From positions 8,418 through 40,417 of the forward strand of contig JAJDDO010000023.1 of assembly GCA_029260265.1 (NCBI GenBank): DNA of 32,000 bases, given 5' to 3'. Under the pieces are notes generated by a model. It saw only the letters and a list, made by a program, of their open reading frames with translations, was not told where the DNA came from and made no database searches. Shown here piece after piece: positions 3,157 through 20,200 of the stretch. Position 1 is the stretch's first letter; the number at the start of each line of letters is the position of its first letter. The stretch is from Phycisphaerales bacterium. GTDB taxonomy: Bacteria; Planctomycetota; Phycisphaerae; Phycisphaerales; UBA1924. Made by a program: the position numbers and the translations under genes.

Positions 3157-3339
3157 GATGGTGTGCCAGAACTCGGAAATGTTGCGGCCCTCGCCGTCCG
3201 TTCGAAGATCGATGTACGCCAGTACCCGCCTATATTGATTCTATTCACCCGAACTGTTCCTCGCGCATATCCACTCCAGTTTCAAACTGATGTGTTAGAA
3301 TCAAGATAATCGCGTTCACTCACTTCTGAATGGATCAAT

Positions 3340-5037: not shown

Positions 5038-5140
5038 TCGACCGGAAAACGGCTGCCTGAGCGTTGGGCGAGCAGATTGCGACACAGCGGTAGACCAGTG
5101 TTTGCGGCATCCACCCGTACGGCGAGTTTTATGCTACAGA

Positions 5141-5422
5141 TCAATTTTCCGGCTTCACCTTGATCACCGGATACAGTAATCGCGGATCGTCACCGACATG
5201 ATGTCGTCTGATCGTGATCTTGGGTTCGAGTTCGCCTCCTTCGGTATAGCGTATTGGTTCCGGTCGACGCAATCCGAGCTCAGCCTCGCATGGTGTCAGC
5301 ATACCAAGAGATGCGTGCGGGCGGTAGAGATTGTGCCAGATCACGAAGCTCTCCAGTCGTTTCTGAATCGAGGTGAGGTCGGGCGTTACGACTGATACCC
5401 GCCACCATCGTTTAATGGGCAA
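5141..5422 (-). pseudogene. Truncated integrase-core (rve/DDE) transposase remnant; only the C-terminal ~90 aa remain
   Basis: The ORF opens with TTG and encodes ...SIQKRLESFVIWHNLYRPHASLGMLTPCEAELG.... This matches the conserved C-terminal signature of rve-type transposases (W.NxxRPHxxLGxxTPxE). No catalytic DDE region lies upstream, so I read it as a decayed IS fragment. Confidence 0.65.
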
Positions 5423-5629
5423 AAACTATTCTACGAGAACGATGACTGATCGCGGTTGGATTTGAAAAGAAATCGGTTTGCCAGGGGTTCAGAAACTCTA
5501 ACCGGTCTTCAATTGAACCAGAAAAGATCAGCGAACTCGATTGTGTGAGAACAGCAACGATTCAAGAGGCCGTGTTCGATGAACACAGGTGGTGTTTCAT
5601 GATTCGTCGATACACCGGATCTCATCTTC

Positions 5630-6478
5630 TCATTCCACAGGTTCCTCACACCCGGCATGAAACAAATCCAAGTATGCGAAGAGGTCCTGAAGATTGAACA
5701 CATCAAACGGCGCCGCGATATCGGCACCCGGGTCCTGGTCATTCAGCAAAGTGAGGAACGCAAAGATGTCCTCCAGATTGAGGATCCCCTCGTAAGGCGG
5801 CGCGAGGTCTGCCACGCATGAAGTGCGTGTGATGCGGAGTGTCCCGATTCTTGGGGCTCCGGCGAATGGGAACTGATTGGAGAGATTAACGATTGGGATG
5901 TGGGGAGCGATGTTTGAGTTTGATGAGGTGTAGTTTGTGCCGGCATCAGTCCCAGAATCATATGCATCGAGGTCGATGGTAACTTCTTGGATCCATATGC
6001 CGTCTTGCCGGAGGTCGAGATCGTAAATTCCTACGAACCAGTCTGGGCTCGGTGCGATCATCGTGACAAGTGAAAGCAGTGGGTAGTCTCCATCCACTTC
6101 AATTGTCCCCGATGCCGAGCCTGGCGAGAGCGGGATCGATCCGAACAAGAGGAACTGGTCGGCGGTTTCGTTGCTGATGTGTGCAAGAACTTCTGAGCGG
6201 AGCGCGTTGGTGCCTCCTGTTTCAGCCATGATTTCGATTCCATTTGTCGCGATCGCATTGGGAGACCAGAGGCTCAGCTGATCGTTGTGGGTTGCACCGA
6301 CGATGGGGGAGAAGTGTGGATTGTTGGGAAACCCAACGGGATGAGTCACTTCACTCCACTCAGCAATGAACTCGAACTGATAGGTCGCCTGGTCCTGAGC
6401 AATGGTGGTGTTCACGAATCCCGCAGATAATGCAAGCGAGAGCAGATTACGAGCGGCATTCCGAGTACGAATAGTCAT
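5630..6478 (-). CDS. Secreted Spondin_N domain protein with a C-terminal GC-type dockerin-like tail
   Basis: The track ORF runs to 6712, but the internal ATG at 6476-6478 gives a signal peptide, MTIRTRNAARNLLSLALSAGFVNTTIAQDQ. The body (YQFEFIAEWSEVTHP...HFSPIVGATHN...MIAPSPDWFVGI...DAYDSGTD) fits the Spondin_N fold family. The tail has two repeats, NLEDIFAFLTLL and NLQDLFAYLDLF, and ends in AGC. Confidence 0.7.
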   Translation of the reverse strand: MTIRTRNAARNLLSLALSAGFVNTTIAQDQATYQFEFIAEWSEVTHPVGFPNNPHFSPIVGATHNDQLSLWSPNAIATNGIEIMAETGGTNALRSEVLAHISNETADQFLLFGSIPLSPGSASGTIEVDGDYPLLSLVTMIAPSPDWFVGIYDLDLRQDGIWIQEVTIDLDAYDSGTDAGTNYTSSNSNIAPHIPIVNLSNQFPFAGAPRIGTLRITRTSCVADLAPPYEGILNLEDIFAFLTLLNDQDPGADIAAPFDVFNLQDLFAYLDLFHAGCEEPVE

Positions 6479-6734
6479 GAAGATATCCAGTTGGGCGTGT
6501 GATTGATGACACTGGCATTTTAACGGCGATTGTCGTGAAAGTATTCCAGGTATTGAGAATATTCTCTCTGAGTTGTTTGGTGTGCGGATGGCTTGAGCGT
6601 CAGAAACTCGACCACGATCCAGCAGTTGATTCATGCTCCGATGAGGATCCGATTTGAGATCGGCATGGTCGCATTGTTTCGCGTATTGAAGGCAGTGCAG
6701 AATGCCATTCACCAGAGATCTTGTCTACCAGTGT

Positions 6735-6918: not shown

Positions 6919-6951
6919 GAAGACGGAGTTGATATGCTTCATCTCGTCTTC
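6919..6951 (+). promoter_or_regulatory. 7-bp inverted repeat GAAGACG-(19 nt)-CGTCTTC in the probable 5' leader of the RyR-domain gene
   Basis: Read directly: 6919-6925 pairs with 6945-6951. It lies about 20 nt upstream of the AAGGAG Shine-Dalgarno at 6971-6976. It could be an operator or a leader hairpin. Confidence 0.3.
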
Positions 6952-6982
6952 TGCTTTGAACCTTAGATCGAAGGAGACTCTT

Positions 6983-9511
6983 ATGCCTCAGGCGATTGAG
7001 CAAGTACTTCTGAACGCCCTCGCAGTGGTTGTATTGCTATCGCTGCTCTGGATGCTCTTTGGGGGTTGCTTGCCTTGGTTGCGTCACCGAGCAAGGGCGG
7101 GTAATGGACCAGTGTTGCTGTTCTATGGCTTGCTGGCGTTCATGATGGGGCTCTATGGATGGTCCGCGAATGGAACCGCTGAGGGATACATTGATGCGAT
7201 GTATTTATCAGTGCAGCATCTCTATCTGAATGCGCCCCAAGAAGGGGCAGATCATTGGGCTGTGCAGATATCGAGACTCTTTGCCATCGCATCAGTAGTG
7301 CTGATCGGTGCCGAGGTGATTCGGCGATTGTTTGAGGATTCAATACAGAGTTTGGCGCTCTTGCTGGCACGAAAGCGTGTGGTCATCATCGGGTTCGGCG
7401 ACACGGGTGCAACGCTGTTTCGAGAGATAGTGGAGATGAACAATCTACTTCCCGCCGAGTTCGCTGGAGTTCGCAAAAAACACATCGTTGTCATCGAGCT
7501 TGATGGTGGGAACGAACAGATCGGGACAGCGAAGACTCGTGGCGCGAGCGTGATCGTGGGAAACGGGCTAGATCGTGCAATCCTGAAGCGAGCGGGGGCT
7601 CATAGGGCAAGTTGTGTGTTTTTTACGATGGCATCCGATCAACGGAACACGGATGCCGTGGCAGCTATATCTGAGCTCAGGCGGGAGAGGCAGGTGCAGT
7701 CTCATGTATCGTGGTATGTTCATCTGCGGGACACTGGGTTGGAGCGTGTTTTGGCGCGTGTACTCAGAGTTAAAGGAGAAAGGAAGTGGGTTCATCTTCA
7801 AACTTTTAATGTGCTTGACCTCGCCGCCCGTGATGCTGTAGAGCAATGTTTGACGGATCTGAGGCCGGTCGAGGATCGGCAGGTGTTCCACTGTATCATC
7901 GTGGGCTTTGGCAAAATGGGACAGCTGCTTACACGCAGAATAGCAGAATCCGCACACTTTGAGAATCTGAAGCGGACTCGGATCACCGTTGTGTATTCGG
8001 CGAACGAACAGGATCAAATCTCGGATTTCTGCGGGCGGCACCCGGCAATCTTTGGTGAGCAGTGCGGTCATGATCCCTGGAATCCCAATCCCGATCGAGA
8101 CGAGTGGTCGTATGAGGAATCGGGATCAGGTGTGTCCTTCGTATGTAACGGCGGCTTTGTTCGTGATGGAGCCGCCCCGCGAAGTCGAGTATTCATGGAT
8201 CAGATCATGGCGGTAGCAAAGACCAATGGTGTGCTTCCAACGGTTTTCTTATGCGCCGATTCAAATGAGGATGACTCGGCGGCCTTTGCTCTGCGTACAG
8301 AACTCGATTCAAGGTTCAACGCCAACGATGCCCCCGGCGAACCCGCTCACCCAGTGCATATCTTCTCCTATATCCCAACCCGCCCCCCGATCGCGTACGC
8401 AACGGAGCGCCTGGGGCTGACCATGTTCGGAGCAGTTTCCACGGTGTGCACACTGGAAGCATTGGCGGGAAGTCTTGATCGAAAGCTCGCAGAAGCATTT
8501 GCACGACGATACAACGATCGAATGGCTCAAGAGCAGAGTGAATCAGATGATCTCGATGGGTGGGAGATCGCATCGAATCTTGCTGCAGCACGCCATGTGC
8601 ATGCGAAACTCGCGGTGCTTGGACTCTGTGTCAGTTCAGTTCGAGAGGGTTTCACTCCGACACCCATTGTGGTCGAGGTTTCCCAACAAAATGGAGGCGG
8701 ACCGGATCATTCTTTATCAACAACGCTGGCGAAGATGGAGCATAACCGTTGGATGGCGGAGCGTTTGATGGACGGTTGGCGATTTGGTCCTGGATCAAAC
8801 GAACTTCGGCTCCGTGCGTCCATGCTCGATTGGAGCAAGCTTCCAGAAGCGGAGCGTAAAACGGATCAAGATCAGATCAGCGAAGCCCTTCTTGTTTGCT
8901 CGGATTCAAATCGATTCGTGCTCAGTCAACGCGAGGCAAGGCTCAAGTGGGGCGCAGGACATGCTGCGTTGAGCTTCATGCAGGACCATCGCAAGCAGAG
9001 TTTGGTGATCGGATGGACCGGACCGCACAAGTTGGAGGACAAGGAAAATGGCAGGGATGCGTTGGGTGCTTTAATCGGGACATTGGGGAAATCCCAGCGA
9101 GCGAAGATCGGTGTCGCTGCTGAGATATCAGCGATTGGATCGATTGCAAATGATGTTGATCTGATGGTCATAGATATCCTTGTGGAGCAAGGTCTGCCGT
9201 ATGATTTAGAGTTGCCCATGCATACCCAACAGTCGGATAAGATCGAGAAAATGATCAAGGAAGCCCGGTCTGTGGAGCGGAAGAAACCAACGGTCGAGCA
9301 GGATCAGCAATGCAACCTGTTGGGAGAACAGATCGTGACTGCGTGCGATGTGCTCATTGCGGTATGGGACGGGGAGCCTTCGCGGGAAATGTGCGAAACG
9401 GCAGCGGCTGTTCGATTGGCTCGTTCAAAAGGGAAGCCTGTCATTACCATTTCTCCAGACGACGGATCTGCATGGTATCAAAAACCGGATCTTGGCGGTG
9501 GTGGTGCGTGA
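6983..9511 (+). CDS. Membrane protein: 3 TM / two TrkA-N-like Rossmann domains / RyR (ryanodine-receptor repeat) domain / C-terminal SLOG/LOG-like Rossmannoid domain
   Basis: The track ORF starts at 6929. I prefer the ATG at 6983, which has AAGGAG 6 nt upstream. Three hydrophobic helices sit at the N-terminus. The glycine loops are VVIIGFGDTGATL and CIIVGFGKMGQLL. The RyR signature is LAKMEHNRWMAERLMDGWRFGP...LDWSKLPEAERKTDQDQI. The C-terminal ~160 aa (SLVIGWTGPH...CDVLIAVWDGEPSREMCETAAAVRLARSKGKPVITI) resemble SLOG or nucleoside 2-deoxyribosyltransferase-like folds. Confidence 0.75.
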   Translation: MPQAIEQVLLNALAVVVLLSLLWMLFGGCLPWLRHRARAGNGPVLLFYGLLAFMMGLYGWSANGTAEGYIDAMYLSVQHLYLNAPQEGADHWAVQISRLFAIASVVLIGAEVIRRLFEDSIQSLALLLARKRVVIIGFGDTGATLFREIVEMNNLLPAEFAGVRKKHIVVIELDGGNEQIGTAKTRGASVIVGNGLDRAILKRAGAHRASCVFFTMASDQRNTDAVAAISELRRERQVQSHVSWYVHLRDTGLERVLARVLRVKGERKWVHLQTFNVLDLAARDAVEQCLTDLRPVEDRQVFHCIIVGFGKMGQLLTRRIAESAHFENLKRTRITVVYSANEQDQISDFCGRHPAIFGEQCGHDPWNPNPDRDEWSYEESGSGVSFVCNGGFVRDGAAPRSRVFMDQIMAVAKTNGVLPTVFLCADSNEDDSAAFALRTELDSRFNANDAPGEPAHPVHIFSYIPTRPPIAYATERLGLTMFGAVSTVCTLEALAGSLDRKLAEAFARRYNDRMAQEQSESDDLDGWEIASNLAAARHVHAKLAVLGLCVSSVREGFTPTPIVVEVSQQNGGGPDHSLSTTLAKMEHNRWMAERLMDGWRFGPGSNELRLRASMLDWSKLPEAERKTDQDQISEALLVCSDSNRFVLSQREARLKWGAGHAALSFMQDHRKQSLVIGWTGPHKLEDKENGRDALGALIGTLGKSQRAKIGVAAEISAIGSIANDVDLMVIDILVEQGLPYDLELPMHTQQSDKIEKMIKEARSVERKKPTVEQDQQCNLLGEQIVTACDVLIAVWDGEPSREMCETAAAVRLARSKGKPVITISPDDGSAWYQKPDLGGGGA

Positions 9512-9933
9512 GCGAGGGGCCGCGGTGTACACCACACTCTCGAAAGGAATAGAGTGTATTGCCGACGCGTCCATCAGTTTCCCTTGGTCGTCATTTGAAC
9601 TCGTATGACAGGCGAGTGGTAACGGATTGAGCATGATGCGGGATTGGGTTGATTCCGTTCGAAGAGCACACTGAATAGAAGTGGTGCGCTTCAATACCCA
9701 ATCGGATTTTCGTTCGAGGCGTGATTTCATGGATTGCCTGTCGTTGCTCCTGCTGACCGCCGGAGCACTGGTGTACAGAAGATCTCGGAATCCACGCAAA
9801 AACGCATCAAGGATTTTACATGCCACTCGTTGCTGAATCCGATTTTAAAAGTTGCTATATGTTCAAGATTGGCATCATGCGCATTTTTGTTCTGCGGCTA
9901 AGTGATTCGGCAGAAATGATTTAGGTATGTTTG

Positions 9934-9962
9934 TTGTGTCAAATCTCCTCAGTTGATATACT
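9934..9962 (+). promoter_or_regulatory. Candidate sigma70-like promoter for the TIR-STAND operon (TTGTGT-17 nt-TATACT)
   Basis: The candidate -35 is at 9934-9939 and the -10 at 9957-9962, with a 17-nt spacer. It sits in a stretch that I counted at 36% GC (43 G+C in 9841-9960). It lies about 25 nt upstream of the ATG at 9988, which is preceded by AGGGG. Promoter consensus in this lineage is not well defined. Confidence 0.25.
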
Positions 9963-9987
9963 ATTCAACGCGACAGCTTAGGGGCCA

Positions 9988-12900
9988 ATGAACATGGGGT
10001 CAGTCAACTTTATCCAGCCTGTCTATTGCCCGACATGCGGAGTGGTTGCGCGGGTACCAGTTCCTCAGGTAGGGTCGGTGGTCAGATGTTCACTATGCGC
10101 GTCGCAGATTACGGTGAATGCGGGAGAAGATGTCTTTGTTTCCTACTCTTCATGTGACGACGAACTGGCTCAATGCATTGCTGCTGAGCTTCATAAGAGA
10201 AACATTCGGTTCTGGCTGGCGCCCCATCTTATCAATCATGGAGAAGCATTTCCCGATCGTATTGAGAACGCTCTCCATCAGGCATCCGTAGTCATTGCGT
10301 TGGTAACGCAAGACGCTGTTGAGTCTCCGTGGGTTGGGCATGAACTTTCAATCGCGATCAGCGCCCGCAAGAAGGTTGTTCCGGTATTGTTCGACGATGT
10401 TGTCCTCCCGAGTGGGTGGGGTCTTCGTACTGTAGAATCGCAGCACATCTTGACCAATCGCGATTCTTTGAGTGATGCTTTGGCATCGCTGGCTTCAGAG
10501 GTTGCAAAGCAGTTGGGGCCCCAGGTCGCTCGGGAGTTGCGTGTTCCAGCAGCTCGGCAAATACAGCGGGCGATCACTCCTGTTGGGATTGACCGGAGTC
10601 TGAAACTCTTTGTGGGCCCTCAGCAGTACACCAGCGAGTATCGTGACAAGTTCTTCGGCCGCGAACTCGAACTCGCCGAGCTCATCCGGAGGCTCAAGGA
10701 TGAGCGAATCATTACAGTTGTTGCTCCGTCGGGTGCGGGGAAGAGTTCCTTGCTCGCCGCGGGGCTCGAGCCGGCGATCAAGGGTGAGGGTTGGCAAGTG
10801 ATATCCGGTGCACGCGTTGGACATCCGCCCGATCCCAATCTCCGCTTCCCTTTTAGCTCGGTGTCGAATGTGTTTACATTCTCCGCGATGCGTGGGGTAT
10901 CAGAGGCAACCGAGGGGATTGAAGAGGTCCGCAGTGGATTGACTGCTGGGCGATCAATCGCCGAATGCCTGAGGAGGTATCCGAGGCAATCGAATACGCG
11001 AAGGCTACTGATCCTGGATCAGTTCGAAGAGATATTCACGCAATACCGGCACCGGCATGAGCATCGTGTGGATTTTGGCACCCAGCTTGAGCAAGCTCAA
11101 CGAGAAGATCCCGATCTTACCATCCTGATTGCGATGCGCCAGGAGTATGTCGTTGATCTCAATCACCTCATGGAGTCGGTTCCGAAGGAGTTGAGATCCT
11201 CTCGATTCGAGCTCCGGCGGCTGGGCAACCAAACATTGGAAAGGGTGATCTCAGACATTGCTGCACCCCAAGCGAGATTTGCGAAAGGGGTAGCAAAGCG
11301 GATCATCGATGAGCTGAACACCATTCATGTTTTGACAGAGAATGGGGATGTTGAAACAAAGGCTGGCGAGTACATTGAGCTTGTTCATTTGCAAATTGTG
11401 TGTCAACATCTTTGGGAAACTCTTCGACCGGGGCAGGTCGTAATTGATCACCAAGATCTTGACAACGCGGCAGAGCAATCAGGACAGTTGAACTTTGATA
11501 TGTTCGTCCGCAGCGCTCTTAATCAGTTCTATGCAAAGACTGTTGCGGCGGTTGCAGGAAACCGTGGAAACACCGAGCCACGCGTGGGTGATGATATTGG
11601 GCAGCCTCAACCCGCAGATACTGTAAAAGCCTACCCAGAAGAGCTCATCAGGCTCGGGTGCCGAGGATTCGTCACCAGAGAGCATACACGGAGGCAAATC
11701 CACGAAGAGGGAGGCTATGTCGGAAGGCTTCCGAGTTGGGTGGTTCAGCAACTCGCCGATCGGTACCTTCTAAGGCTCGATACTGCGGGCTCGGTTCGGT
11801 ATTATGAGCTCTCACATGATCTTCTTGCGCCGATCGTCGCGAATCAGAGCGACCCACGGGCGGAGAACTTGCTCTATGCTGCCGAGTTACTCAAGAAACG
11901 ACTTGACGGAGTGTTGCTCAGCAGAAACGGGTCCCTCACAGGATGGTTCGAAGAAGCAGACGAACTGCTCACACAATGCGAAGTTTATCTCGATGCTCCA
12001 GGCTATCTGCTCAAAGATGAGTGTGAGATCCTCTTGCGAGCAAGCATCAAGTCCGGCAAAGAACTTGCACGATGGTCACAGCGTGTTTTCGAAGACGCCC
12101 CTGATCTTTACGAAGTTGTTCTACTTGATGCGATTGATGCGGACCAACCTGAGATCAGAAAGCATGTCATCTGGATGCTCAGGGACTGTCAAGATCCGGA
12201 TGTGGTTCCCAAACTTCTGGAGCTGCTCGTCAATGATGTCTCGCAGCCGGTCCGTTTCGAGGCGGCTCTCGCCCTGTTGAAAATTGATGATGAGCAACTC
12301 TTCGATGAACTCTTCCGCCGAAGCCGGAACGATCCATCAAACCAACAACTCTCCCGTGCTGTTGCGATGCTGCTCGCGTTAGCTGATGAGTTGGCTGAGT
12401 CGAAGTTCAATACTGCATTCGATGCCCTCCGCGGGCATGGGAGATGGAACATCCGAATCATGGCATGGGGAATTCGGATGCGCGAAGCGGTGGCGATTCT
12501 CCCCACAATTCTCTTGGTCACCGCGGTTTTTGCGGGCGGATTCGCGGCTTGCTACAAATGGATACCCGGCAACTACAACTGGGGACTGGTTCAAGCAAGC
12601 CCAGGGGCTTTCATGGGGGTTTTTCATGGGCTCATCGCGGGGACTATCTGGGGCGGTGGGATCTCGGCAGGTGTAGCGATCCATAGGCTTGTGTTCTTCC
12701 AAGCCCGGCATCGTACAGGAGTGCTGCGCCCATTCGGCTCGATCATCGCTGGGGGCGTTGCGGGTATTCTCAGCAGCATAGTGGTCGTGCTGGTCCTCAC
12801 CAATACATATGAACTTCCTTCTTTGGAACGCATGGGGTGGATAGGTTCCAGAGTAATCGAGACAGAAATCGAAGGCGGATCCACAAAGCTTGAAGTCTTT

Positions 12901-13356
12901 GTGCCAAGCCGCCTAGAAACCGAGTTCTACGCCGATTTATTCTTACATACAAGAATGGGTTGGGCACACCTCATCCTTGGCACTTTTCTCGGGATTGGAA
13001 TCGCGGCAACCACAAATAGTGCTCGTTCGAGCCCCGCTTGGGAGCGATTCCTAGATCAACAATCCGCATTCGTTGGACTCAGGCAGATCGCATTGAGTGC
13101 GAAGCAAATTTTCACACTCACGCTCCGTCATCTTTGGCCTGTGTTGATTACACAACTCATCGGCGGTCTGATTGTGTACAACCTGGTTCGCCCTGGGCTC
13201 GGTGCAAAGGGGCGGAACAACTCGCCGTTGTACGGAATTATTGGTGATGCGTCCACACAAGTGATCGGGACCCTTGGTGCGGTCGTTGGCTTAGGCGTTG
13301 TCACGATCATCATCAGGCACGGCATGGTCATCAAGCCGCGGAGCAAAGCCCGATGA
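9988..13356 (+). CDS. Zinc-ribbon / TIR / P-loop STAND NTPase / HEAT-repeat / ~6-TM protein (NLR-like)
   Basis: 1122-aa ORF with these elements in order:
- CPTCG...CSLCAS zinc ribbon (aa 14-38), MJ0042-like.
- TIR-like domain from DVFVSYSS (aa 48 to about 175), with the glutamate of ESPWVGHEL retained (nt 10342-10344).
- Walker A APSGAGKS (nt 10723-10746).
- Walker B LLILDQFEEIF.
- YYELSHDLLAPIV, typical of STAND winged-helix modules.
- HEAT-like repeats (PEIRKHVIWMLRDCQDPDVVPKLLELLVNDVSQPVRFEAALALLKI).
- About six Gly-rich hydrophobic helices (aa 834-1108). Confidence 0.85.
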   Translation: MNMGSVNFIQPVYCPTCGVVARVPVPQVGSVVRCSLCASQITVNAGEDVFVSYSSCDDELAQCIAAELHKRNIRFWLAPHLINHGEAFPDRIENALHQASVVIALVTQDAVESPWVGHELSIAISARKKVVPVLFDDVVLPSGWGLRTVESQHILTNRDSLSDALASLASEVAKQLGPQVARELRVPAARQIQRAITPVGIDRSLKLFVGPQQYTSEYRDKFFGRELELAELIRRLKDERIITVVAPSGAGKSSLLAAGLEPAIKGEGWQVISGARVGHPPDPNLRFPFSSVSNVFTFSAMRGVSEATEGIEEVRSGLTAGRSIAECLRRYPRQSNTRRLLILDQFEEIFTQYRHRHEHRVDFGTQLEQAQREDPDLTILIAMRQEYVVDLNHLMESVPKELRSSRFELRRLGNQTLERVISDIAAPQARFAKGVAKRIIDELNTIHVLTENGDVETKAGEYIELVHLQIVCQHLWETLRPGQVVIDHQDLDNAAEQSGQLNFDMFVRSALNQFYAKTVAAVAGNRGNTEPRVGDDIGQPQPADTVKAYPEELIRLGCRGFVTREHTRRQIHEEGGYVGRLPSWVVQQLADRYLLRLDTAGSVRYYELSHDLLAPIVANQSDPRAENLLYAAELLKKRLDGVLLSRNGSLTGWFEEADELLTQCEVYLDAPGYLLKDECEILLRASIKSGKELARWSQRVFEDAPDLYEVVLLDAIDADQPEIRKHVIWMLRDCQDPDVVPKLLELLVNDVSQPVRFEAALALLKIDDEQLFDELFRRSRNDPSNQQLSRAVAMLLALADELAESKFNTAFDALRGHGRWNIRIMAWGIRMREAVAILPTILLVTAVFAGGFAACYKWIPGNYNWGLVQASPGAFMGVFHGLIAGTIWGGGISAGVAIHRLVFFQARHRTGVLRPFGSIIAGGVAGILSSIVVVLVLTNTYELPSLERMGWIGSRVIETEIEGGSTKLEVFVPSRLETEFYADLFLHTRMGWAHLILGTFLGIGIAATTNSARSSPAWERFLDQQSAFVGLRQIALSAKQIFTLTLRHLWPVLITQLIGGLIVYNLVRPGLGAKGRNNSPLYGIIGDASTQVIGTLGAVVGLGVVTIIIRHGMVIKPRSKAR

Positions 13357-14333
13357 ATCCGCACTCGCGAGACCAACAAACTGGTTCAGTTCACGGTCAC
13401 CTGCCCGAAGAGGTGTTTCGTTTGATTGCCCACAGGCGGACTCTGCAAAGCGATGGAGTTCCGTCGGACGATGGATTCAAACTCGGGCTTGTTGTCGAGG
13501 GCGGTGGGATGCGAGCAGCGGGGTCTGCTGGTGCGGTGGTGGAGTTAGCTGAGCTTGATTGTGTTGATGTGTTCGACTCGGTGTACGCTACCTCTGCTGG
13601 GGTTATGAACGCGGCATATTTCCTGAGCGGGCAGCATCAGATGGGCATCACGATCTACTTTGACGATCTGACCAAGCGCCAGTTTATCAATCGTTTCCGA
13701 TTCTGGAGAATCATGGATTTGGATTGGGTGTTCCGTGAAGTGATTCAGCATTCCAAGCCGCTTGATGTGACCTCCATGCTCGATTCCAGACCAGAGTTTC
13801 ATGTTGCAGCGACTGACTTTGATTCGGGAGAGAGAACACTGATCAATGTGAAAGAGCCAACTGTTAACCCGTTGGCGGCATTAAAGGGAGCGATGGCCAT
13901 CCCGGTCCTCTACAACAAAGCAGTCGAGGTAGATGGGGCGAGACTCTTCGATGGTGGACTGCTCAATCCATTTCCAATAGCCGATGCCATCGATGCAGGT
14001 TGCACGCACATCCTGGTTCTGCTCAGCAGAGGAGCATCTTACCAAAGAGATGCCACGCACCCGTTGATGTCTATGCTGTTTGATTGGTACTTTGCCCGAG
14101 GAGCAAAGTGCCTTCGCGGCATGTTCCGCCGCTACCCTGAGCTCGACAGAGCAGCAAGAGATCTCGCGTTTGCCAGGAAGAGACTTCCAGATGGTGTCCA
14201 TATAGCGACAATTTGCCCACCATCAGATTGCCCGCTGCAGCGGAGTACTGTTGACAAGGAGCGATTGATCGCTGCGAGCCGCTTGTTTGGAAAAGAGATA
14301 AAACATTCGCTGGCGAAGATGTGTGAATCGTGA
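13353..14333 (+). CDS. Patatin-like phospholipase
   Basis: 326-aa ORF. The oxyanion motif is VVEGGGMRAA, the nucleophile elbow is YATSAGV (Ser81), and the catalytic Asp motif is LFDGGLLNPFP. Its ATG overlaps the upstream TGA (ATGA at 13353-13356), with GGAG at 13340-13343. Confidence 0.85.
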   Translation: MNPHSRDQQTGSVHGHLPEEVFRLIAHRRTLQSDGVPSDDGFKLGLVVEGGGMRAAGSAGAVVELAELDCVDVFDSVYATSAGVMNAAYFLSGQHQMGITIYFDDLTKRQFINRFRFWRIMDLDWVFREVIQHSKPLDVTSMLDSRPEFHVAATDFDSGERTLINVKEPTVNPLAALKGAMAIPVLYNKAVEVDGARLFDGGLLNPFPIADAIDAGCTHILVLLSRGASYQRDATHPLMSMLFDWYFARGAKCLRGMFRRYPELDRAARDLAFARKRLPDGVHIATICPPSDCPLQRSTVDKERLIAASRLFGKEIKHSLAKMCES

Positions 14334-14341
14334 GCGCGTTC

Positions 14342-14360
14342 AATCCCGGAGGCGGGATTT
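14342..14360 (+). terminator. Candidate intrinsic terminator after the patatin gene
   Basis: AATCCCG-gagg-CGGGATT is a 7-bp stem with a 4-nt loop. It starts 9 nt after the stop codon and is followed by TTCTGCT, so the U-tract is short and imperfect. Confidence 0.4.
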
Positions 14361-14478
14361 CTGCTAAAATCGAAACGGCTCAAGAATGATTGCTTGCCAT
14401 AGCTTTGGATACATATCGCAACTCAGCTTGGCAGCGGATCGTAATTGAATACAATGCGTGTTCTAAAGGGGTACAGCG

Positions 14479-15081
14479 ATGAGATGTAGTACATGTGGGG
14501 CTTCAGGATCCGGGCGGTTTTGTTCATCGTGTGGTGGCGCTCTTTCCGCCCCATCGGGGTGTGCTGCGTGCGGGCAGGCACTCTCGCCTGCCGATACCTT
14601 TTGTGGCTCTTGTGGTCATCGGGTTGAGGGGCAGCAGGTTTCGCGTGGCGCTGTTCACGCGTCGCCGCCTCCGCGGACTGCGCCGCAGCCAATGCCACGC
14701 CATCAATCTCCGGCGCCCGTTCGGCATGTGCAACCGGCGATCGGTGCGACCCGATCATGGACGGTGGTGGTTACGCTGATTGCCGCGATTCTCCATATAC
14801 TCGGTTCGCTCGTGATCGCGCTCGAGTTTGCGCTCTGGATTGTGAATACTGGTGACGACGGGACCAGGATCATGCTCGGCGTCATGGCCGGTTTGTTGGT
14901 GTTGGGAGCCTTGTTCTCGCTGATTTGTGCGATCGGTATCATGTCGGGCAGCAGGTTCGCTTGGGTTTGTGGGATTCTGGCGTGTGTGTTCGGGATCGTT
15001 GCGGCACTCCCGACGATCATCTTGTTTGTGTTCTTGCTGGTGCCGCCAACACGGGCATGGGTGCGTGCCCGCTCTGGCTAA
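14479..15081 (+). CDS. Double zinc-ribbon membrane protein (N-terminal CxxC x4, Pro-rich linker, 3-4 TM helices)
   Basis: 200-aa ORF. It begins MRCSTCGASGSGRFCSSCGG...CAACGQALSPADTFCGSCGH, then a proline-rich spacer, then hydrophobic helices (VVVTLIAAILHILGSLVIALEFALWIV and others). AAAGGGG lies 7 nt upstream of the ATG. Confidence 0.7.
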   Translation: MRCSTCGASGSGRFCSSCGGALSAPSGCAACGQALSPADTFCGSCGHRVEGQQVSRGAVHASPPPRTAPQPMPRHQSPAPVRHVQPAIGATRSWTVVVTLIAAILHILGSLVIALEFALWIVNTGDDGTRIMLGVMAGLLVLGALFSLICAIGIMSGSRFAWVCGILACVFGIVAALPTIILFVFLLVPPTRAWVRARSG

Positions 15082-16097
15082 CGGTCTCGGTACCGGCCAT
15101 TCGCATGAACCGCGATAAAAACACTCCGCCACGGGTGGTCGGGGGCTTGGATCTGATAGATACCAGGCGACTCAAACTGGAGCACATGCTGTTTGCCCGT
15201 GTCGAGTGAGAGCGGGATGATTGTGTGTCCCCCCGGCATTGGTGCCCGCACAAGCACTTTGATTTCAAAGCCATTCGGATTCGAAAGCGTGAGCGAGTCG
15301 GTGATCGCCAGATCACTCCATGTTGGTCTGATCGAGGTTGGACCGATGATGGCGTGATTCGGTTGCGATCGTTGAATCCCAGCATACTGGAAGAGCACAA
15401 ACCAAAGGCATACCAGCGCGTTCCCGACCCAGCCAACCAGCCACGCACGAGCACCGAACGGGCGCCAAGTTCGTAGCCTTTCTGGTCTTTGGCAGAGGAT
15501 TCCAAGGGGGATTCCGTACCAGATATGCCCCGTGTACGCGAGCAGTAGCCCATAAGATGCTTTGCGAATCGCGAATACCTCGCCGAATGGAGAGAGTACG
15601 GCGAGTGTTTCGAGCATCAAACCCCACACAATGGCCCAAGCCCAATGGCGACGAAAAACGACCAGAGCAAAGATCCATCCGAAGGTGATGCCGTTAGAGA
15701 GGTGGTACGCGAATCCCACCAAATCAGTAAAGAGTGTTGAACTCGATGAGCCCGTTGCCCACAAGCCGTACACGCGTATCGGCGAGAGTGTGTTGGTCCC
15801 CGCGATATCAAATGGGATCCGGAACATGTCGTATCCGATTGTGCCGAGAAGCCCGCCGACGAGCCCTGCTTTCAGGCGCAAGAGCAACTCGGCATCTTTC
15901 TCCAATCGTGCCCAAATCCAGCAGAAAATCATCACACAGCTCGCAAGCGGAACGACGAATACCATCCAAGTCAGCATCCTCGGGCCATCAGAGAGATGAC
16001 TCAGCAGCATGGTAATGCTGACGAAACAGCTCAAGAGAAAGAGTGTCTTGCGGATCGCACTGCGAGAAGGCTTCATGAAAGAAGTATAGGTGTGCAT
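15078..16097 (-). CDS. Polytopic membrane protein of unknown function with a C-terminal ~90-aa beta-rich soluble domain
   Basis: The track ORF extends to 16343, but that extension overlaps the divergent gene that starts at 16127. In-frame ATGs at 16097 (MHTYTSF...) and 16076 (MKPSRSAIRK...) precede the first TM helix. There are about 7 hydrophobic helices. The exact start is uncertain. Confidence 0.6.
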   Translation of the reverse strand: MHTYTSFMKPSRSAIRKTLFLLSCFVSITMLLSHLSDGPRMLTWMVFVVPLASCVMIFCWIWARLEKDAELLLRLKAGLVGGLLGTIGYDMFRIPFDIAGTNTLSPIRVYGLWATGSSSSTLFTDLVGFAYHLSNGITFGWIFALVVFRRHWAWAIVWGLMLETLAVLSPFGEVFAIRKASYGLLLAYTGHIWYGIPLGILCQRPERLRTWRPFGARAWLVGWVGNALVCLWFVLFQYAGIQRSQPNHAIIGPTSIRPTWSDLAITDSLTLSNPNGFEIKVLVRAPMPGGHTIIPLSLDTGKQHVLQFESPGIYQIQAPDHPWRSVFIAVHANGRYRDR

Positions 16098-16126
16098 CCA
16101 GGGGGCAATTCCACTATAGTAGATGG

Positions 16127-17290
16127 ATGAATACGGGACCACAGTTCTGCACTCACTGCGGCGCAAGCACTCAGGCGGGCGCTGGATTCTGCACGGCTTG
16201 CGGGTCTCAACTCGGAGGCGCGGTTGCCGCCCAGCCTGCTCATCCTCACCAGCCCCATCTGAGAGCGGTCTATCGCCAAGCAAAGCGTACGAAAGCCAAG
16301 CTGTTTTCCTTCCGTCGTTTCTTCGCTTTTTCCGGTGTTTCACTTCTCGGCATCGGGCTCGCGGACGGATGGAAGGAAACGCTCAATGGTGTTGCTCCAT
16401 TGCACGCGATCCTTGGTGTACCCACTCCGAGCAGCGCCATAGGAGGGAGCATTTCGCTTGCGTTTCACGGGTTTCTGGCTGGAGTCGTGATCGGGCTCAT
16501 CCGATCCCTGTTGTCTGGGCAACTTTTAAAAGTCTTTCAATCGCCGGCCAAGCCAATGATGATGTTTTTCATGTGCGCGATTGTTGCTGTTCTTGCGCCT
16601 GATGCGATGGGTGACGATGGGGGGATTATTGAGCTGGCACGAGGTGCCGCGATTGTGCCAAATCTCACCGTGTTGATCGGGAGTTCTGCAGCCGCGGGCG
16701 CCGGGTTGAGCGCTGGAGTGGGAGTGGTGACGGTTATTGTGAACGGAGCCGTTTCTTCGGTGTCGCGCCCACCGACCGCTCCAAGCTCGGGCAGAACCGG
16801 TAGGGAAACGGGACCAGGAGTGTCAAATCCAGCTCAGAGCCAAAGTCCTCCTGCCCAATCGCCTATAGGCCGAAATGACAACCAAGGAAATGAACAGGAA
16901 GAAGAGGAGCCACCAAACTTCACGCTCGATATTCAGACCGATGGCGGGCGGACCAATATCTTGGCCGATGACCGAGATGAGCTCGGAGTTTCCGCAACCG
17001 TGTTCTGTGACAAGCCAGAAATTGACACAAGCCAGATGGCGGGTTCGATTACCTTTACCGCCGGCGGACCAGCAGTTGATTGGGTCCAACTCGGTCAACG
17101 GATGACGAGCGGGAGCACAGCAATGATTGATGTGAAGGCTAAGCCACCTACGCCAGAGAGCGTGCTTCTTGAATCCGGCGCGATTCTGACTGTTCGACTG
17201 ACGCTCGGGCGGGCGGTTTTTTCTGGTGTTGTGAATCTGACTGTAGAATCGTCTGACTACCACCTTGAGATCGTCTATGACACAGAGTAA
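16127..17290 (+). CDS. Zinc-ribbon / multi-TM / low-complexity linker / C-terminal Ig-like domain protein
   Basis: 387-aa ORF. It begins MNTGPQFCTHCGASTQAGAGFCTACGSQL, followed by several hydrophobic segments. A Q/S/P/E-rich linker follows (SNPAQSQSPPAQSP...NEQEEEEPP). The last ~115 aa look like a beta-sandwich. Confidence 0.7.
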   Translation: MNTGPQFCTHCGASTQAGAGFCTACGSQLGGAVAAQPAHPHQPHLRAVYRQAKRTKAKLFSFRRFFAFSGVSLLGIGLADGWKETLNGVAPLHAILGVPTPSSAIGGSISLAFHGFLAGVVIGLIRSLLSGQLLKVFQSPAKPMMMFFMCAIVAVLAPDAMGDDGGIIELARGAAIVPNLTVLIGSSAAAGAGLSAGVGVVTVIVNGAVSSVSRPPTAPSSGRTGRETGPGVSNPAQSQSPPAQSPIGRNDNQGNEQEEEEPPNFTLDIQTDGGRTNILADDRDELGVSATVFCDKPEIDTSQMAGSITFTAGGPAVDWVQLGQRMTSGSTAMIDVKAKPPTPESVLLESGAILTVRLTLGRAVFSGVVNLTVESSDYHLEIVYDTE

Positions 17291-20200
17291 TCCAGACCGG
17301 GCACCAATGCAATTCCGCATACAGGATGACGGCGGATACGCGCCGCAAAGAATCACGCTGCGCGGATGGAAGGGGAAAGAAGGAACCCGCGAAGAGCCCG
17401 CGAAGTTGAACCGGGCGGAAGTTGAATCCGAGATTCCAGATGTTTTTTCAGCTGTCGATTTCAGCCTGCTCGAGGATGGATCTATCGAAGGGTGGATCGA
17501 ACTCGAGCAGAACTTTGTCATGGCACCGCGGTTCTTTGAAGTGATCAAGGATCCCATTGAAGTGCAGGTGAAGGCATGGATCGAGTCTCCCGACGATGCC
17601 ACAGCGGAACAGCCCGAGATATTGATTAAACAGCAACTCACCGTGAAGATCGAAGATGGATATCAGGTGGTGGTGGATAACCCCGAAGAGGGCTTGCTCG
17701 ATCTTCAGGAGGGGCCAACGGAGATCCCGTTTACACTCAAGATCAGTACACCGAACGCAACACCAGCAGCCAATCTACGGGTGCGGTGTCGTATCTCTGA
17801 AGGAGAGCAGCCGACGCTTCAAGGTGAACTTATGGTCGATGGAGGGACGACGGATGATGCAGGACTCGTATCGATGCAGTATCGAACTCGTGCAAGCGGG
17901 TCAATGCGTGGGGGGGAGGCACCTGGCGTTTCTCTGCAGGTGACACGCGTCAGTGAATCTGCTGATCAAAATGAGATTGAGATCGGGAAAATCACGCTCG
18001 TCGCGGCTCCGCGTGTGACACTCCGAATCGAGAAACCATCGCTAAGCGAAGAGCCCATCAGCGGAGCCGCATTGTCTTACCCGCCAGAGTTGGCCCTTGG
18101 CGGGACATTCCTGCTCAAGCCGAGGGCGGTTATCGAGGTGGAGGGCAAACGGTATGAGAGCGAGAAGGTCATTCGTGATGCGAAGATCTTTGTTGTTGAA
18201 TCGGATACGGATGACCCGCTCGCATGGAGCGAAGAGCATCAAGCATACGAGTTCGTTCTTCGATCTCCGCAAGGCCCAAGCTTGGTGTCCCAGTCAGCGC
18301 CAACACGAGAAGGAGTGATCGGCGAGCCAAAGTCATTCCTCGTAGCGATTGATTCGGGGACTGGGAGCAAGGATCTGAGCGGGGGTGCGATTGGGGCTGC
18401 GCTGGGCGATGTTATGCAAGACTCCAACCGGCTTGTTGGGCGGTATGGACCATTGACGGGACCCGCGGCAGTTGCAGATTTTATTCAAGGGCTCGTCGAT
18501 CGTGCCGCAGAAGCACCCGCTGATACACTCGGAGAAGAGATCAAAGAGTGGCCGCAATGCGCCGCTCGCGCTGCGGAAACATATTCGAGCACAATCAACA
18601 CGGCGGATGCCTTCGAGAGATCGCTCACGCTGCACAAGTATTCGTATGAAATGTTCCTGACCAACTGGATTGGATTTTGCGTCGAGTTGTTCTTTGGATG
18701 GTTCCTCGATGCTGCGGGTTATCTCGCGCGAAGCGGCTCTGAGTTTGCATCAACGGGTGCAGAGAATGTTCGCAAGAGGGTTTCACGCACGGTCGGGGAC
18801 GATGCGGTCGATGGGCTCTCCGCAAGGATCAGAAAGCAGCTTGGCGATGTGCAAGATTTTTTCCGGCGCGAGGTGGATCGGGCGGAGCGAACGATCAATG
18901 AACTGACAAGCAAAATCCAAGATCACCAACGCCAAAGAGTGGACTATGAAGCGGCACGCGAGGCGACGAAAGAAGCCGCGGACGAACTCGCTCAGTTGCA
19001 GCGTGTGTCTGACCCCCTGAAGGAGGCCTTGGAGCAAGGCAAGCAGAGGAAGGGGCGAATCCAGTATATTGAAGATGAGATTGCCCGCCTGGCCGAGGAG
19101 TGGAGGCCGGTCGCCGGTGAACACCTGCGGCTCAAGGATCAGCTCGACCGTGCAAGGCAGAGTCTTTCGGAATATTCTCAGAGTGCAAAGAGAGAGACCC
19201 CCGCGGTCCAGAAGCTCATTGAAGAAGCACAGGCGATTCTCGATGAGGGCGGCCCAAGATTAGAGCGCCTTACGGAGCAAGTGGAGTCCGCCAAGAGAGA
19301 GATCGACGGGCTGACTCGTGAGAGCGAGGAGATCAAAAACAGTCTCGCGACCGATCCACCGCCCTCCGAGCAGGCGGCTGCCGAGGCGATAGAAAAAACA
19401 CGATTGGCCGAGGAGGCGGTGAGATCCAAGGCTCAAGTTGCACATCGGGCTCAGATTCAAGATATCAGGAGCCAAGCTAAGATTGAAGAGCTTGAGCTGC
19501 AGCGAAGCATCGCTCAAATCGAGCGAGATGAGCTGAGCACACTCTACCGCAGGAGCCAAGATTCGTCGAGCGAACTCACCGCAGAGCAAACCAAAGAGTT
19601 GCTCGATGACATGCACAAGAGGCAGACCAAATCCGTTGAGGCCCGCCTCAGGCAGTTCGAGCCGGTGATCGAGCGTCTATCCGGTCAACTCGAAGAACTC
19701 CGATCCAAAATGGTCGAGTTGTTCCATCCTGGTCACAATGTGTTCAAGGATTATTTTACTGCTGTTGAGGAAATTCGCCGCACAAAGCTGCGATTAAGAT
19801 CCGGGGACTCCTTCAGGCTGCCATTAGTATCCGGGCTGCACGGCGAAGCCGGAGAAGACGCGGCCAAGGGCGCGGTCAGCCGAGACGATGCGGCAGAGCA
19901 GCTCGAACAAAGGCTCAAAGAGCTCCAACTTGAAATCCGTAACGCTCAGCAAGGAGCTGCGACTCACACCGGCGGCAAGCTCGTGCCGGAGGACGAGGGG
20001 TATTTTCGGTGGTTCCTTGACAGCGCTGCCTCGGGCGTGTCGATGCTAATTGGGGTGCTTGTCAAAGTGGTGTATTGGACACTGGTTGTTCTTTCGCTTG
20101 GCGGTGTCATGATCCTCTTTGAAGCAGCAAAGGCTATTTTGTCGCGGCTCATGGCGGCAGCCTTTGCAACCTCGTTTATGACAATCCGTTATCTTGCAGA

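Follow-up and report, generated by a model that had tools for sequence, protein, structure and literature searches.

Known bacterial NLR-like sensors, such as the Avs and bNACHT proteins, have been described as soluble, cytoplasmic receptors for phage proteins. STAND proteins usually carry the effector at the N-terminus and the sensor at the C-terminus. This arrangement was restated for Avs proteins, in which DUF4062 is an NAD-cleaving (NADase) effector named NIR (bioRxiv 10.64898/2026.09.04.749371). TIR, NIR, and PNP are nucleotide-degrading immune effectors in systems of the Avs, cyclic-oligonucleotide-based anti-phage signalling (CBASS), and Thoeris types (bioRxiv 10.64898/2026.09.04.749371; PMC7159879), and SLATT genes accompany TIR and PNPase effectors in nucleoside triphosphatase (NTPase) conflict systems (PMC7159879). 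We investigated a locus of a Phycisphaerales bacterium whose family appears to keep a STAND switch constantly embedded in the membrane by means of a domain without known relatives, and to tie it to a lipid-modifying enzyme. The locus lies in a stretch of 32,000 nucleotides (nt), referred to as the window (assembly GCA_029260265.1, contig JAJDDO010000023.1, positions 8,418 to 40,417 of the forward strand). Two overlapping open reading frames (ORFs) were studied. ORF A (9988..13356, plus strand, ATG start) encodes 1122 amino acids (aa) with a zinc ribbon, a TIR domain, an nSTAND1 NTPase, HEAT repeats, and a module of six transmembrane (TM) helices. ORF B (13353..14333, plus strand, ATG start) encodes a soluble patatin-like phospholipase of 326 aa. 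We held at about even confidence that the locus is an abortive-infection or regulated cell-death module, in which a membrane-anchored Avs/NLR-like STAND switch would work with a lipid-enzyme partner. New here are the membrane domain, an obligatory partner that acts on lipids, and their combination with a third, Thoeris-like gene.

ORF A was compared with the Avs (Avs1-Avs5 and later families) and bNACHT proteins. It was similar to them in the swappable N-terminal effector (TIR, NIR/DUF4062, or PNP), the central STAND module with Walker A and Walker B motifs, and the C-terminal helical repeats. However, its NTPase was of the nSTAND1 clade and was matched by none of the Avs models of PADLOC. Its C-terminus was an integral 6-TM module with an unmatched fold, whereas that of Avs is a soluble TPR-type sensor. 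In addition, the family of ORF A had an obligatory separate lipid-enzyme gene, and some members carried winged helix-turn-helix (wHTH) or cyclase outputs. By analogy, ORF A would be an Avs/NLR-type STAND protein in its working, but it falls outside every named Avs family. The original prediction, made from the letters of the window, knew of no named system with this architecture. This was borne out, as the literature searched did not describe a pair of nSTAND1-HEAT-TM protein and patatin and no PADLOC system was found. PADLOC gave matches in the TIR region (SAVED_TIR, ThsB, Aga_TIR) and one HEAT-ARM match, which are the partial matches without a complete known system that had been expected. 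The nSTAND1 conflict systems (PMC8195603) were similar in that ORF A was a bona fide PF20703 protein and its effectors were shuffled as in that clade. However, the C-terminus of a typical nSTAND1 protein is formed by WD40, TPR, or comparable domains, whereas ORF A ended in the TM module and was accompanied by a patatin. In the paper on this clade by Kaur, Iyer, Burroughs, and Aravind in 2021 (PMC8195603), patatin is unmentioned and the mentions of TM segments concern non-nSTAND1 proteins. The main text of a 2026 Nature survey of 589 STAND clades (PMC13581612) mentions neither patatin nor this architecture.

Four further systems showed partial likeness. Type VII Thoeris consists of the TIR protein ThsB and the SLATT effector ThsH with canonical cyclic ADP-ribose (cADPR) as the signal, and the survey that described it left out the TIRs of Avs (STAND) proteins (bioRxiv 10.64898/2025.12.03.692087). 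In five loci related to ours, a TIR with the catalytic Glu adjoined a membrane protein that had an N-terminal putative ligand-binding domain and SLATT_1 hairpins, the latter above the model cutoff in one locus. However, the TIR of ORF A was embedded in a 1122-aa STAND-TM protein and was not a stand-alone ThsB, the window had no SLATT, and the core included an extra patatin or PAP2. ORF B resembled CapV of CBASS as a soluble protein of the patatin fold with a Ser-Asp dyad in a conflict-type operon. In contrast to CapV, the window had no CD-NTase, and ORF B would be coupled translationally to the STAND-TM protein, not through a diffusible cyclic nucleotide. In plants, the EDS1-family proteins have a lipase-like alpha/beta-hydrolase fold, bind nucleotides produced by TIRs, and can dispense with lipase catalysis. 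The axis of plant TIR-NLR proteins (TNLs) and EDS1/PAD4/SAG101 was similar in linking a TIR-NLR to a lipase-like protein, whereas the patatin of ORF B kept invariant catalytic residues and tracked the TM core rather than the TIR. In regulated cell death of fungi, PLP-1 also joins a patatin lipase to an NLR-type switch with a P-loop, and both the lipase and the P-loop are required (PMC12881547). However, the fungal patatin is fused N-terminally to an NB-ARC NLR, whereas ORF B was a separate downstream gene and ORF A had an nSTAND1 NTPase, a TIR in the N-terminal slot, and a predicted membrane-embedded part.

The linkage between the two genes was analyzed next to that of their relatives. Both ORFs were present in the ORF list at the positions claimed. 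The junction (13340..13356, plus strand) contained GGAG at 13340-13343, read as 9 nt 5' of the ORF B start, and the ATGA stop/start overlap at 13353-13356, both as the original prediction had described them. Eleven distinct contexts of full-length members were examined, the window included, which is a small sample. A patatin of the ORF B type was directly downstream of the STAND gene in nine of them (the window, L001, L002, L004, L006, L008, L009, L171, and L173). As called, the genes overlapped by 4 nt in the window, L001, L002, and L004, by 1 nt in L006 and L008, and by 34 nt in L173, and were separated by 24 nt in L009 and 110 nt in L171. Five contexts besides the window thus shared the short overlap of 1-4 nt. 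The genes flanking the pair were otherwise unrelated between contexts, and the adjacency was held at 27-43% core identity in at least two phyla. A scan of GTDB genomes with full-length alignment gave no true family member among the matches listed. The listed matches were remote relatives of the nSTAND1 kind, with 23-33% identity in the NTPase region, and they served as a negative control. A patatin of the ORF B family was found within about 7 kb in 0 of 80 such nSTAND1 loci without the TM module. In addition, the pairwise divergence of the ORF A core and of the patatin was correlated (nine pairs, Mantel r = 0.80, permutation p = 0.0014). In the Acidobacteria-type clade, patatin identity was 67-89% versus 42-80% for the core. 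The claimed pairing was thus conserved across phyla and co-diverging. As read from these sequences, the patatin gene appears to be translationally coupled to ORF A, and the pair is inherited as a unit. The opposite view would be a chance or decayed arrangement, in which ORF A is an orphan and an unrelated housekeeping lipase overlaps it without coupling. The ordinary neighbourhood of the window agreed with this view. However, the conserved adjacency, the 0 of 80 controls, the co-divergence, and the invariant catalytic residues effectively refuted it, and we gave it almost no credence.

We then considered which part of ORF A the lipid enzyme follows. The patatin was kept where other N-terminal domains replaced the TIR, indicating that it goes with the nSTAND1-HEAT-TM core and not with the TIR. 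In two independent contexts of a TIR-type sub-clade, L170 (P0034) and L172 (P0027), no patatin was downstream. Instead, a lipid-phosphatase gene (PAP2/PAP2_3) was located 27-31 nt upstream of the STAND gene (L170 9277-9969, L172 3065-3808). The proteins of these two genes gave only weak NCBIfam matches, which were to PgpB, undecaprenyl-diphosphatase, and lipid A phosphatase models. The exchange of patatin and PAP2 on the same backbone suggested that the core function was tied to membrane lipids. A TIR-lipase axis of the TNL/EDS1 kind, which the original prediction had compared with the pair, did not hold as the conserved feature, because the patatin tracked the core, stayed without the TIR, and was replaced by PAP2 in one TIR sub-clade. 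The conserved core is nSTAND1-HEAT-TM plus a lipid enzyme, and the N-terminal domain would be a swappable output.

These observations also bear on a lipid-centred explanation, which we regarded as unlikely but as the main rival. According to it, the TM module would sense a lipid or the state of the membrane in envelope-stress or lipid-homeostasis signalling, immune or not. The enzyme, placed upstream or in feedback, would make, remove, or remodel the sensed lipid, and the N-terminal domain (wHTH, cyclase, TIR, or NIR) would be merely the chosen output. It is favored by the exchange of two unrelated lipid-acting enzymes while the TM module was constant, and by the enzyme tracking the TM-bearing core and not the N-terminal output. 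However, about 100 of about 120 full-length members had TIR or NIR, and one had PNP. These are hallmarks of suicide or immune effectors and are hard to reconcile with housekeeping. A prokaryotic "lipid-gated NLR" was a distinctly doubtful extension, in which the 6-TM module would be a new class of receptor for lipid or membrane state and patatin or PAP2 would make or edit its ligand. In such wiring, the output would be NADase signalling (from TIR or NIR to X-SLATT or an RyR-domain channel-like protein, both described below), a cyclic nucleotide, or transcription. If it is true, NLR-type immunity would read membrane integrity directly through an enzyme-receptor pair.

The partner enzyme itself retained its catalytic motifs. 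The original prediction had called ORF B a patatin-like lipase. The Pfam Patatin model matched aa 46-213 (E 6.2e-18, 66.1 bits versus a cutoff of 27.7), and the Ser81/Asp200 dyad was intact, which upheld this call. The motifs were GGGMR at aa 50, the nucleophile elbow A-T-S81-A-G, with Ala in place of the first Gly of GxSxG, and D200-G-G. The dyad codons were located at 13593-13595 (Ser81) and 13950-13952 (Asp200) of the plus strand. G50, G51, R54, S81, and D200 were invariant in 36 relatives. ORF B had no TM segment, and a weak profile match to PlpD (5fqu) was obtained. From its sequence, ORF B is predicted to be a soluble patatin with the catalytic residues retained. We also looked from the patatin side. 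An exclusive partnership between ORF B-type patatins and this family was rejected, as 0 of 80 metagenome loci found from that side carried a TM-STAND gene. The nearest patatins outside the family were in a fusion of Ser/Thr kinase and patatin of 948 aa (L092 2914-5760), divergently adjoining a TIR-AAA_16 protein of 986 aa (L094 2920-6960), and near an NB-ARC protein (L095 1856-6963). These settings suggested that this patatin is a modular component of several NLR-like or kinase switches.

The soluble domains of ORF A were examined with Pfam, motifs, and alignments. The original prediction had placed a zinc ribbon, a TIR domain with its catalytic Glu retained, a STAND NTPase, HEAT-like repeats, and about six Gly-rich TM helices in this protein. 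All of these domain calls were correct by Pfam, motifs, and, for aa 806-1122, an AlphaFold2 model, and every quoted motif was found at its quoted residues. The zinc ribbon (C14xxC17...C34xxC37, 10027..10098, plus strand) comprised CPTC at aa 14 and CSLC at aa 34. Its cysteines were kept in 22-25 of 36 aligned family members, and the rest were mostly gaps in members without a zinc-ribbon/TIR N-terminus. The TIR domain (aa 49-149, 10132..10434, plus strand) matched TIR_2 with E 2.7e-19, and the motif DVFVSYS was at aa 48. In SPWVGHE at aa 113, the candidate catalytic Glu was E119 (codon 10342-10344). W115-V-G-H-E119 was aligned onto W-T-N-Y-E of Acinetobacter AbTIR (7uwg, 8g83), which we take to be its W204/E208 catalytic motif. 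E119 was kept in 27 of the 29 family sequences that had a residue aligned there.

The NTPase module covered aa ~208-625 (10609..11862, plus strand), as delimited by PF20703 and by a family hidden Markov model of the NTPase that covered aa 200-623. The PF20703 match extended over aa 208-488 (E 1.1e-33, 117.9 bits versus a cutoff of 27.1). Walker A was APSGAGKS with K252 (10723-10746), Walker B was LLILDQFEE at aa 340 with D344, E347, and E348 (11005-11031), and YYELSHDLL at aa 605 was at 11800-11826, all on the plus strand. The Walker A lysine and the Walker B acidic residues were intact, in agreement with the STAND call. K252, D344, E347, E348, R384, H610, and D611 were invariant in 36 family sequences. 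The region after the P-loop domain was conserved up to aa ~625 (W/Y605, E607, H610, and D611), and proteins of a sister group matched the full nSTAND1 model at 227-318 bits, with this region also covered. The HEAT repeats (aa 711-793, 12118..12366, plus strand) matched HEAT_2 with E 2e-10, and with E 4e-11 when the region was isolated.

The C-terminal module (aa 806-1122, 12403..13353, plus strand) was delimited by an AlphaFold2 model and conservation. Hydropathy of ORF A gave five strong segments within aa 829-1117. The model, built from 20 aligned sequences, contained six long helices (mean predicted local distance difference test (pLDDT) 91.3, predicted TM-score (pTM) 0.88), which is in line with the claim of about six helices. 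Its third loop contained a beta-hairpin, and there were amphipathic helices on the cytoplasmic side. The conserved residues were K857, Q869, W888, W951, G998, G1002, N1010, D1087, and Q1091. Many glycines and the buried polar residues K857, Q869, N1010, D1087, and Q1091 were near-invariant or invariant. The module had no Pfam match even at E<=10. With Foldseek, neither the PDB (TM-scores of at most 0.36, best E 0.07) nor the predicted viral structures of BFVD (best E 0.1) yielded a match. On the basis of the model, it would be a membrane domain new to the described families. The positive-inside analysis fitted an N-in/C-in topology, which would make the TIR, NTPase, and HEAT parts cytoplasmic. 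As modelled, ORF A would be anchored in the inner membrane by this conserved six-helix module with both termini predicted to be cytoplasmic.

An exhaustive HMMER search with the TM module gave 223 matches among 1.84 billion representative proteins. In nearly all full-length matches, the module was at the C-terminus of nSTAND1 proteins of ~1000-1300 aa. A word-indexed search with the TM-module profile gave only two fragments, as low-complexity TM words flooded the candidates. One match, P0386 (L174 6001-7215, 404 aa), combined an OmpR-type wHTH (Trans_reg_C, 31.9 bits) with the TM module and was without NTPase and HEAT. No lipid enzyme was found in its neighbourhood in L174. A DNA-binding output fused straight to the TM module suggested that the module is an input or anchor and not a killing device. 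P0364 (400 aa) and several other TM-module matches of ~400 aa may be similar short forms or fragments. Membrane segments of another kind were observed in the nSTAND1-WD40 proteins P0058-P0070, many of which had a single strongly hydrophobic segment just after the NTPase (~aa 450-560). Membrane association may therefore be common in the nSTAND1 clade.

It was also considered that the TM module itself might be the effector. NTPase oligomerisation would then assemble it into a pore or channel, HEAT alone would sense, and the patatin would assist membrane breakdown. The helices are rich in Gly, and their invariant glycines and the polar residues buried among them could serve to pack helices or conduct ions. 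In addition, the module had a confident fold without a match. Membrane-disrupting TM effectors are common in defence (bioRxiv 10.64898/2025.12.03.692087; PMC7159879). However, the N-terminal effector slot of this family was already filled and was the part that was swapped, in keeping with the usual order of an N-terminal effector and a C-terminal sensor in STAND proteins. The pairing with wHTH, in the mini-protein and in full-length members, gives a DNA-binding output that would make little sense for a pore. In addition, the module is always in the membrane, and its toxicity would need tight gating. We considered the pore explanation improbable. The same residues are also relevant to the lipid-centred explanation, as a ligand site would be expected to have conserved polar residues inside helices (K857, Q869, N1010, D1087, and Q1091). 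This explanation is also favored by the wHTH and cyclase outputs and by the minimal wHTH-TM protein, which resembles a one-component membrane regulator, as they fit a signalling role. However, this minimal protein had no adjoining lipid enzyme, and the rarity and patchiness of the family (the 223 matches above) would be atypical for core homeostasis.

The distribution of full-length homologues and their N-terminal slot was analyzed. A search of 5.8 billion proteins gave about 55 proteins that covered at least 80% of ORF A with 27-41% identity. These were mostly from metagenome-assembled genomes of Planctomycetota, with some from Acidobacteriota (Pyrinomonadaceae), and the family was also present in other phyla. 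All of them shared the C-terminal cluster of hydrophobic helices and the architecture, which is more than would be expected by chance. The slot was occupied by zinc ribbon and TIR in the majority, and by a class-III cyclase fragment, DUF4062, an OmpR-type wHTH, or, in one member, PNP_UDP_1. A large sister group had a divergent DUF4062 there. In a relaxed Pfam scan of the isolated domain, by which this assignment was made, it was the sole Pfam match in all four proteins tested and was above the cutoff in one; hhalign of the domain was not significant. N-terminal domains of the NADase type, TIR or NIR, were found in the ~100 of ~120 full-length members noted above. The swapping in this slot strengthened the NLR-like logic. 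In addition, the natural swaps (TIR, NIR, PNP, cyclase, or wHTH in the slot; patatin or PAP2 as the partner) constitute a set of variants for separating input from output. Directly upstream of the wHTH-type members, and divergent from them, a small conserved ORF of 126-138 aa without a Pfam match was observed (L006 7374-7754, L008 7354-7746, and L009 7387-7803, minus strand).

A probable third component was found upstream of the pair. An all-vs-all comparison of the proteins encoded around family members revealed a shared domain, here called X. Five X-SLATT_1 proteins (~500-615 aa) were located beside or near the STAND gene in L001, L002, L170, L172, and L173. In these, the X domain was N-terminal, with the motifs GHR, AD, LP, DVLxAVWDG, and GGT, and the SLATT_1 hairpins were C-terminal. 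The NCBIfam SLATT_1 model matched the L173 protein with 53.7 bits versus a cutoff of 41, and the proteins of L001, L002, L170, and L172 were sub-threshold. In the window, the X domain was instead carried by a membrane protein of 860 aa (6929..9511, plus strand) with N-terminal TM segments and Pfam TrkA_N and RyR domains. Its X domain (aa ~691-860, 8999-9508, plus strand) was delimited by alignment with the N-terminal domains of the X-SLATT_1 proteins. In L173, a separate TrkA_N+RyR gene was directly upstream of the STAND gene. An X-bearing gene was present in 6/6 loci of the TIR/NIR type and in 0/4 cyclase/wHTH loci. The TrkA_N-RyR-X gene is probably the third component. The compact two-gene operon of the original prediction was thus retained in part. 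The pair was coupled and syntenic, but the locus was not limited to two genes, given the conserved third partner upstream. The gap between this gene and ORF A (9512-9987, 476 nt) had no Rfam family, notable repeats, or sigma-70-like promoter, although the promoter and terminator scans were consensus-based and may not suit Planctomycetota.

The nature of the X domain was examined by several searches. It had no NCBIfam or PADLOC match, a profile search of the PDB was negative, and hhalign showed no significant similarity to the alignments of TIR and DUF4062. The Pfam hints were all below threshold (YAcAr/SLOG, E 0.08; Nuc_deoxyrib_tr, E 0.03), and the AlphaFold2 model from the single sequence was unusable (pLDDT 46). 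At the level of motifs, a SLOG-like nucleotide sensor would be our guess. The presence of X-SLATT or TrkA_N-RyR-X at TIR/NIR loci pointed to TIR signalling of the Thoeris kind, not only to NAD depletion. In L002, a second patatin of a different family was located beside X-SLATT (5181-6329) and matched the PADLOC model of a CBASS phospholipase effector (PDLC00758, 1.9e-38), which is CapV-like. A homologue was found in L173 (1352-2422). L002 thus had four co-oriented genes, for the CapV-like patatin, X-SLATT, TIR-nSTAND1-TM, and the ORF B-type patatin. SLATT and CapV-like partners are known death effectors, which is a further point against the lipid-centred explanation. The X-RyR/TrkA_N protein beside a TIR may indicate a cADPR-type control of a bacterial RyR-domain membrane protein. 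If this is true, the link would be notable in evolutionary terms, as animals use cADPR-RyR signalling.

A mechanism can be proposed for the abortive-infection reading. The HEAT and TM region would be the input and would respond to a membrane-proximal cue, such as a perturbation of envelope or lipid or an invader protein at the membrane. The position of the TM module C-terminal to HEAT and the minimal wHTH-TM protein suggested that the module serves as input rather than output. Upon activation, nSTAND1 would bind ATP and oligomerise, and the N-terminal TIRs would be brought together and cleave NAD+ through Glu119. The patatin, translated together with ORF A and presumably bound to the HEAT/TM platform, would be released or activated at the membrane and hydrolyse phospholipids. 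At TIR/NIR loci, an NAD-derived product (ADP-ribose or a cADPR isomer) would probably also serve as a signal for the X domain of the neighbour, X-SLATT in the relatives and TrkA_N-RyR-X here. The X-domain protein would provide a further arm, a pore or an ion flux, similar to that of type VII Thoeris. The cell would be expected to lose NAD+ and the function of its membrane, and to stop growing or die. If the locus is immune, NLR-type receptors could watch over the envelope, the site at which infection starts, and a single locus would unite three effector arms, which cleave NAD+, hydrolyse phospholipids, and act in a SLATT or ion-channel-like manner.

The evidence on both sides of this role was weighed. 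A role in conflict or abortive infection was favored by the majority of NADase-type N-terminal domains, the companion proteins of the SLATT and CapV-like kinds, the rare and patchy occurrence of the family, and the combination of a slowly evolving enzyme with a faster-evolving sensor. Several points weighed against it. The wHTH and cyclase N-terminal domains are classic signal-transduction outputs and not killing effectors, and the wHTH-TM mini-protein P0386 looks like a ToxR-type regulator. A PAP2 phosphatase is odd as a killer and fits lipid sensing or remodelling better. ORF B had no PADLOC match at E<=0.01, including the CBASS phospholipase-effector models, and the X domain escaped identification in profile and structure searches. 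The window neighbourhood was that of an ordinary planctomycete chromosome with ion transporters and sugar/oxidoreductase genes, which also suited the lipid-centred explanation. No canonical defence system was seen adjoining any family member in the contexts examined. Relatives of the module were found in none of the IMG/VR viral contigs, INPHARED phages, and PLSDB plasmids, which gave no sign of mobility. The locus had no flanking repeats, tRNA, or Rfam element. The defence-island context was weak. Conflict-type neighbours were present in some contexts (NERD, CHAT, SIR2+nSTAND1, TIR-TPR, GT4-conflict, and IS110). The most defence-island-like context seen was that of L004/L005 (6406-17479), where a cyclase-type member was located between an IS110 transposase and a SIR2_2 + nSTAND1 pair with a TIR-TPR protein, and a GT4-conflict glycosyltransferase was nearby.

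The 3' end of the pair was also inspected. A 7-bp hairpin (AATCCCG-GAGG-CGGGATT, 14342..14359, plus strand) had been proposed as the terminator. The hairpin exists, but it was without a U-tract and was not called in the terminator scan. Its stability did not exceed that of shuffled sequence (z = -0.08; 84 of 200 shuffles folded equally well or better), and the terminator claim was left unsupported. A promoter-like site at 14428-14455, ahead of the gene downstream of the pair, was consistent with a unit that ends before it. The products of the genes in 14479-20990 had no relatives near other family members. These were a double-zinc-ribbon protein with a TM segment (14479-15081), a multi-TM protein of 421 aa without a Pfam match (15078-16343, minus strand), a zinc-ribbon protein (16127-17290), and, overlapping it, a coiled-coil protein of 1241 aa (17265-20990) that showed only weak coiled-coil similarity to LmuB/JetC/SMC. 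On the upstream side, the stretch just before the TrkA_N-RyR-X gene (window 1528-6712) encoded a cluster for ion transport, with an Na/H exchanger-TrkA_N protein (1528-3156) and a K-channel with TrkA_N/TrkA_C (3340-5037), and a Spondin_N-domain protein (5630-6712).

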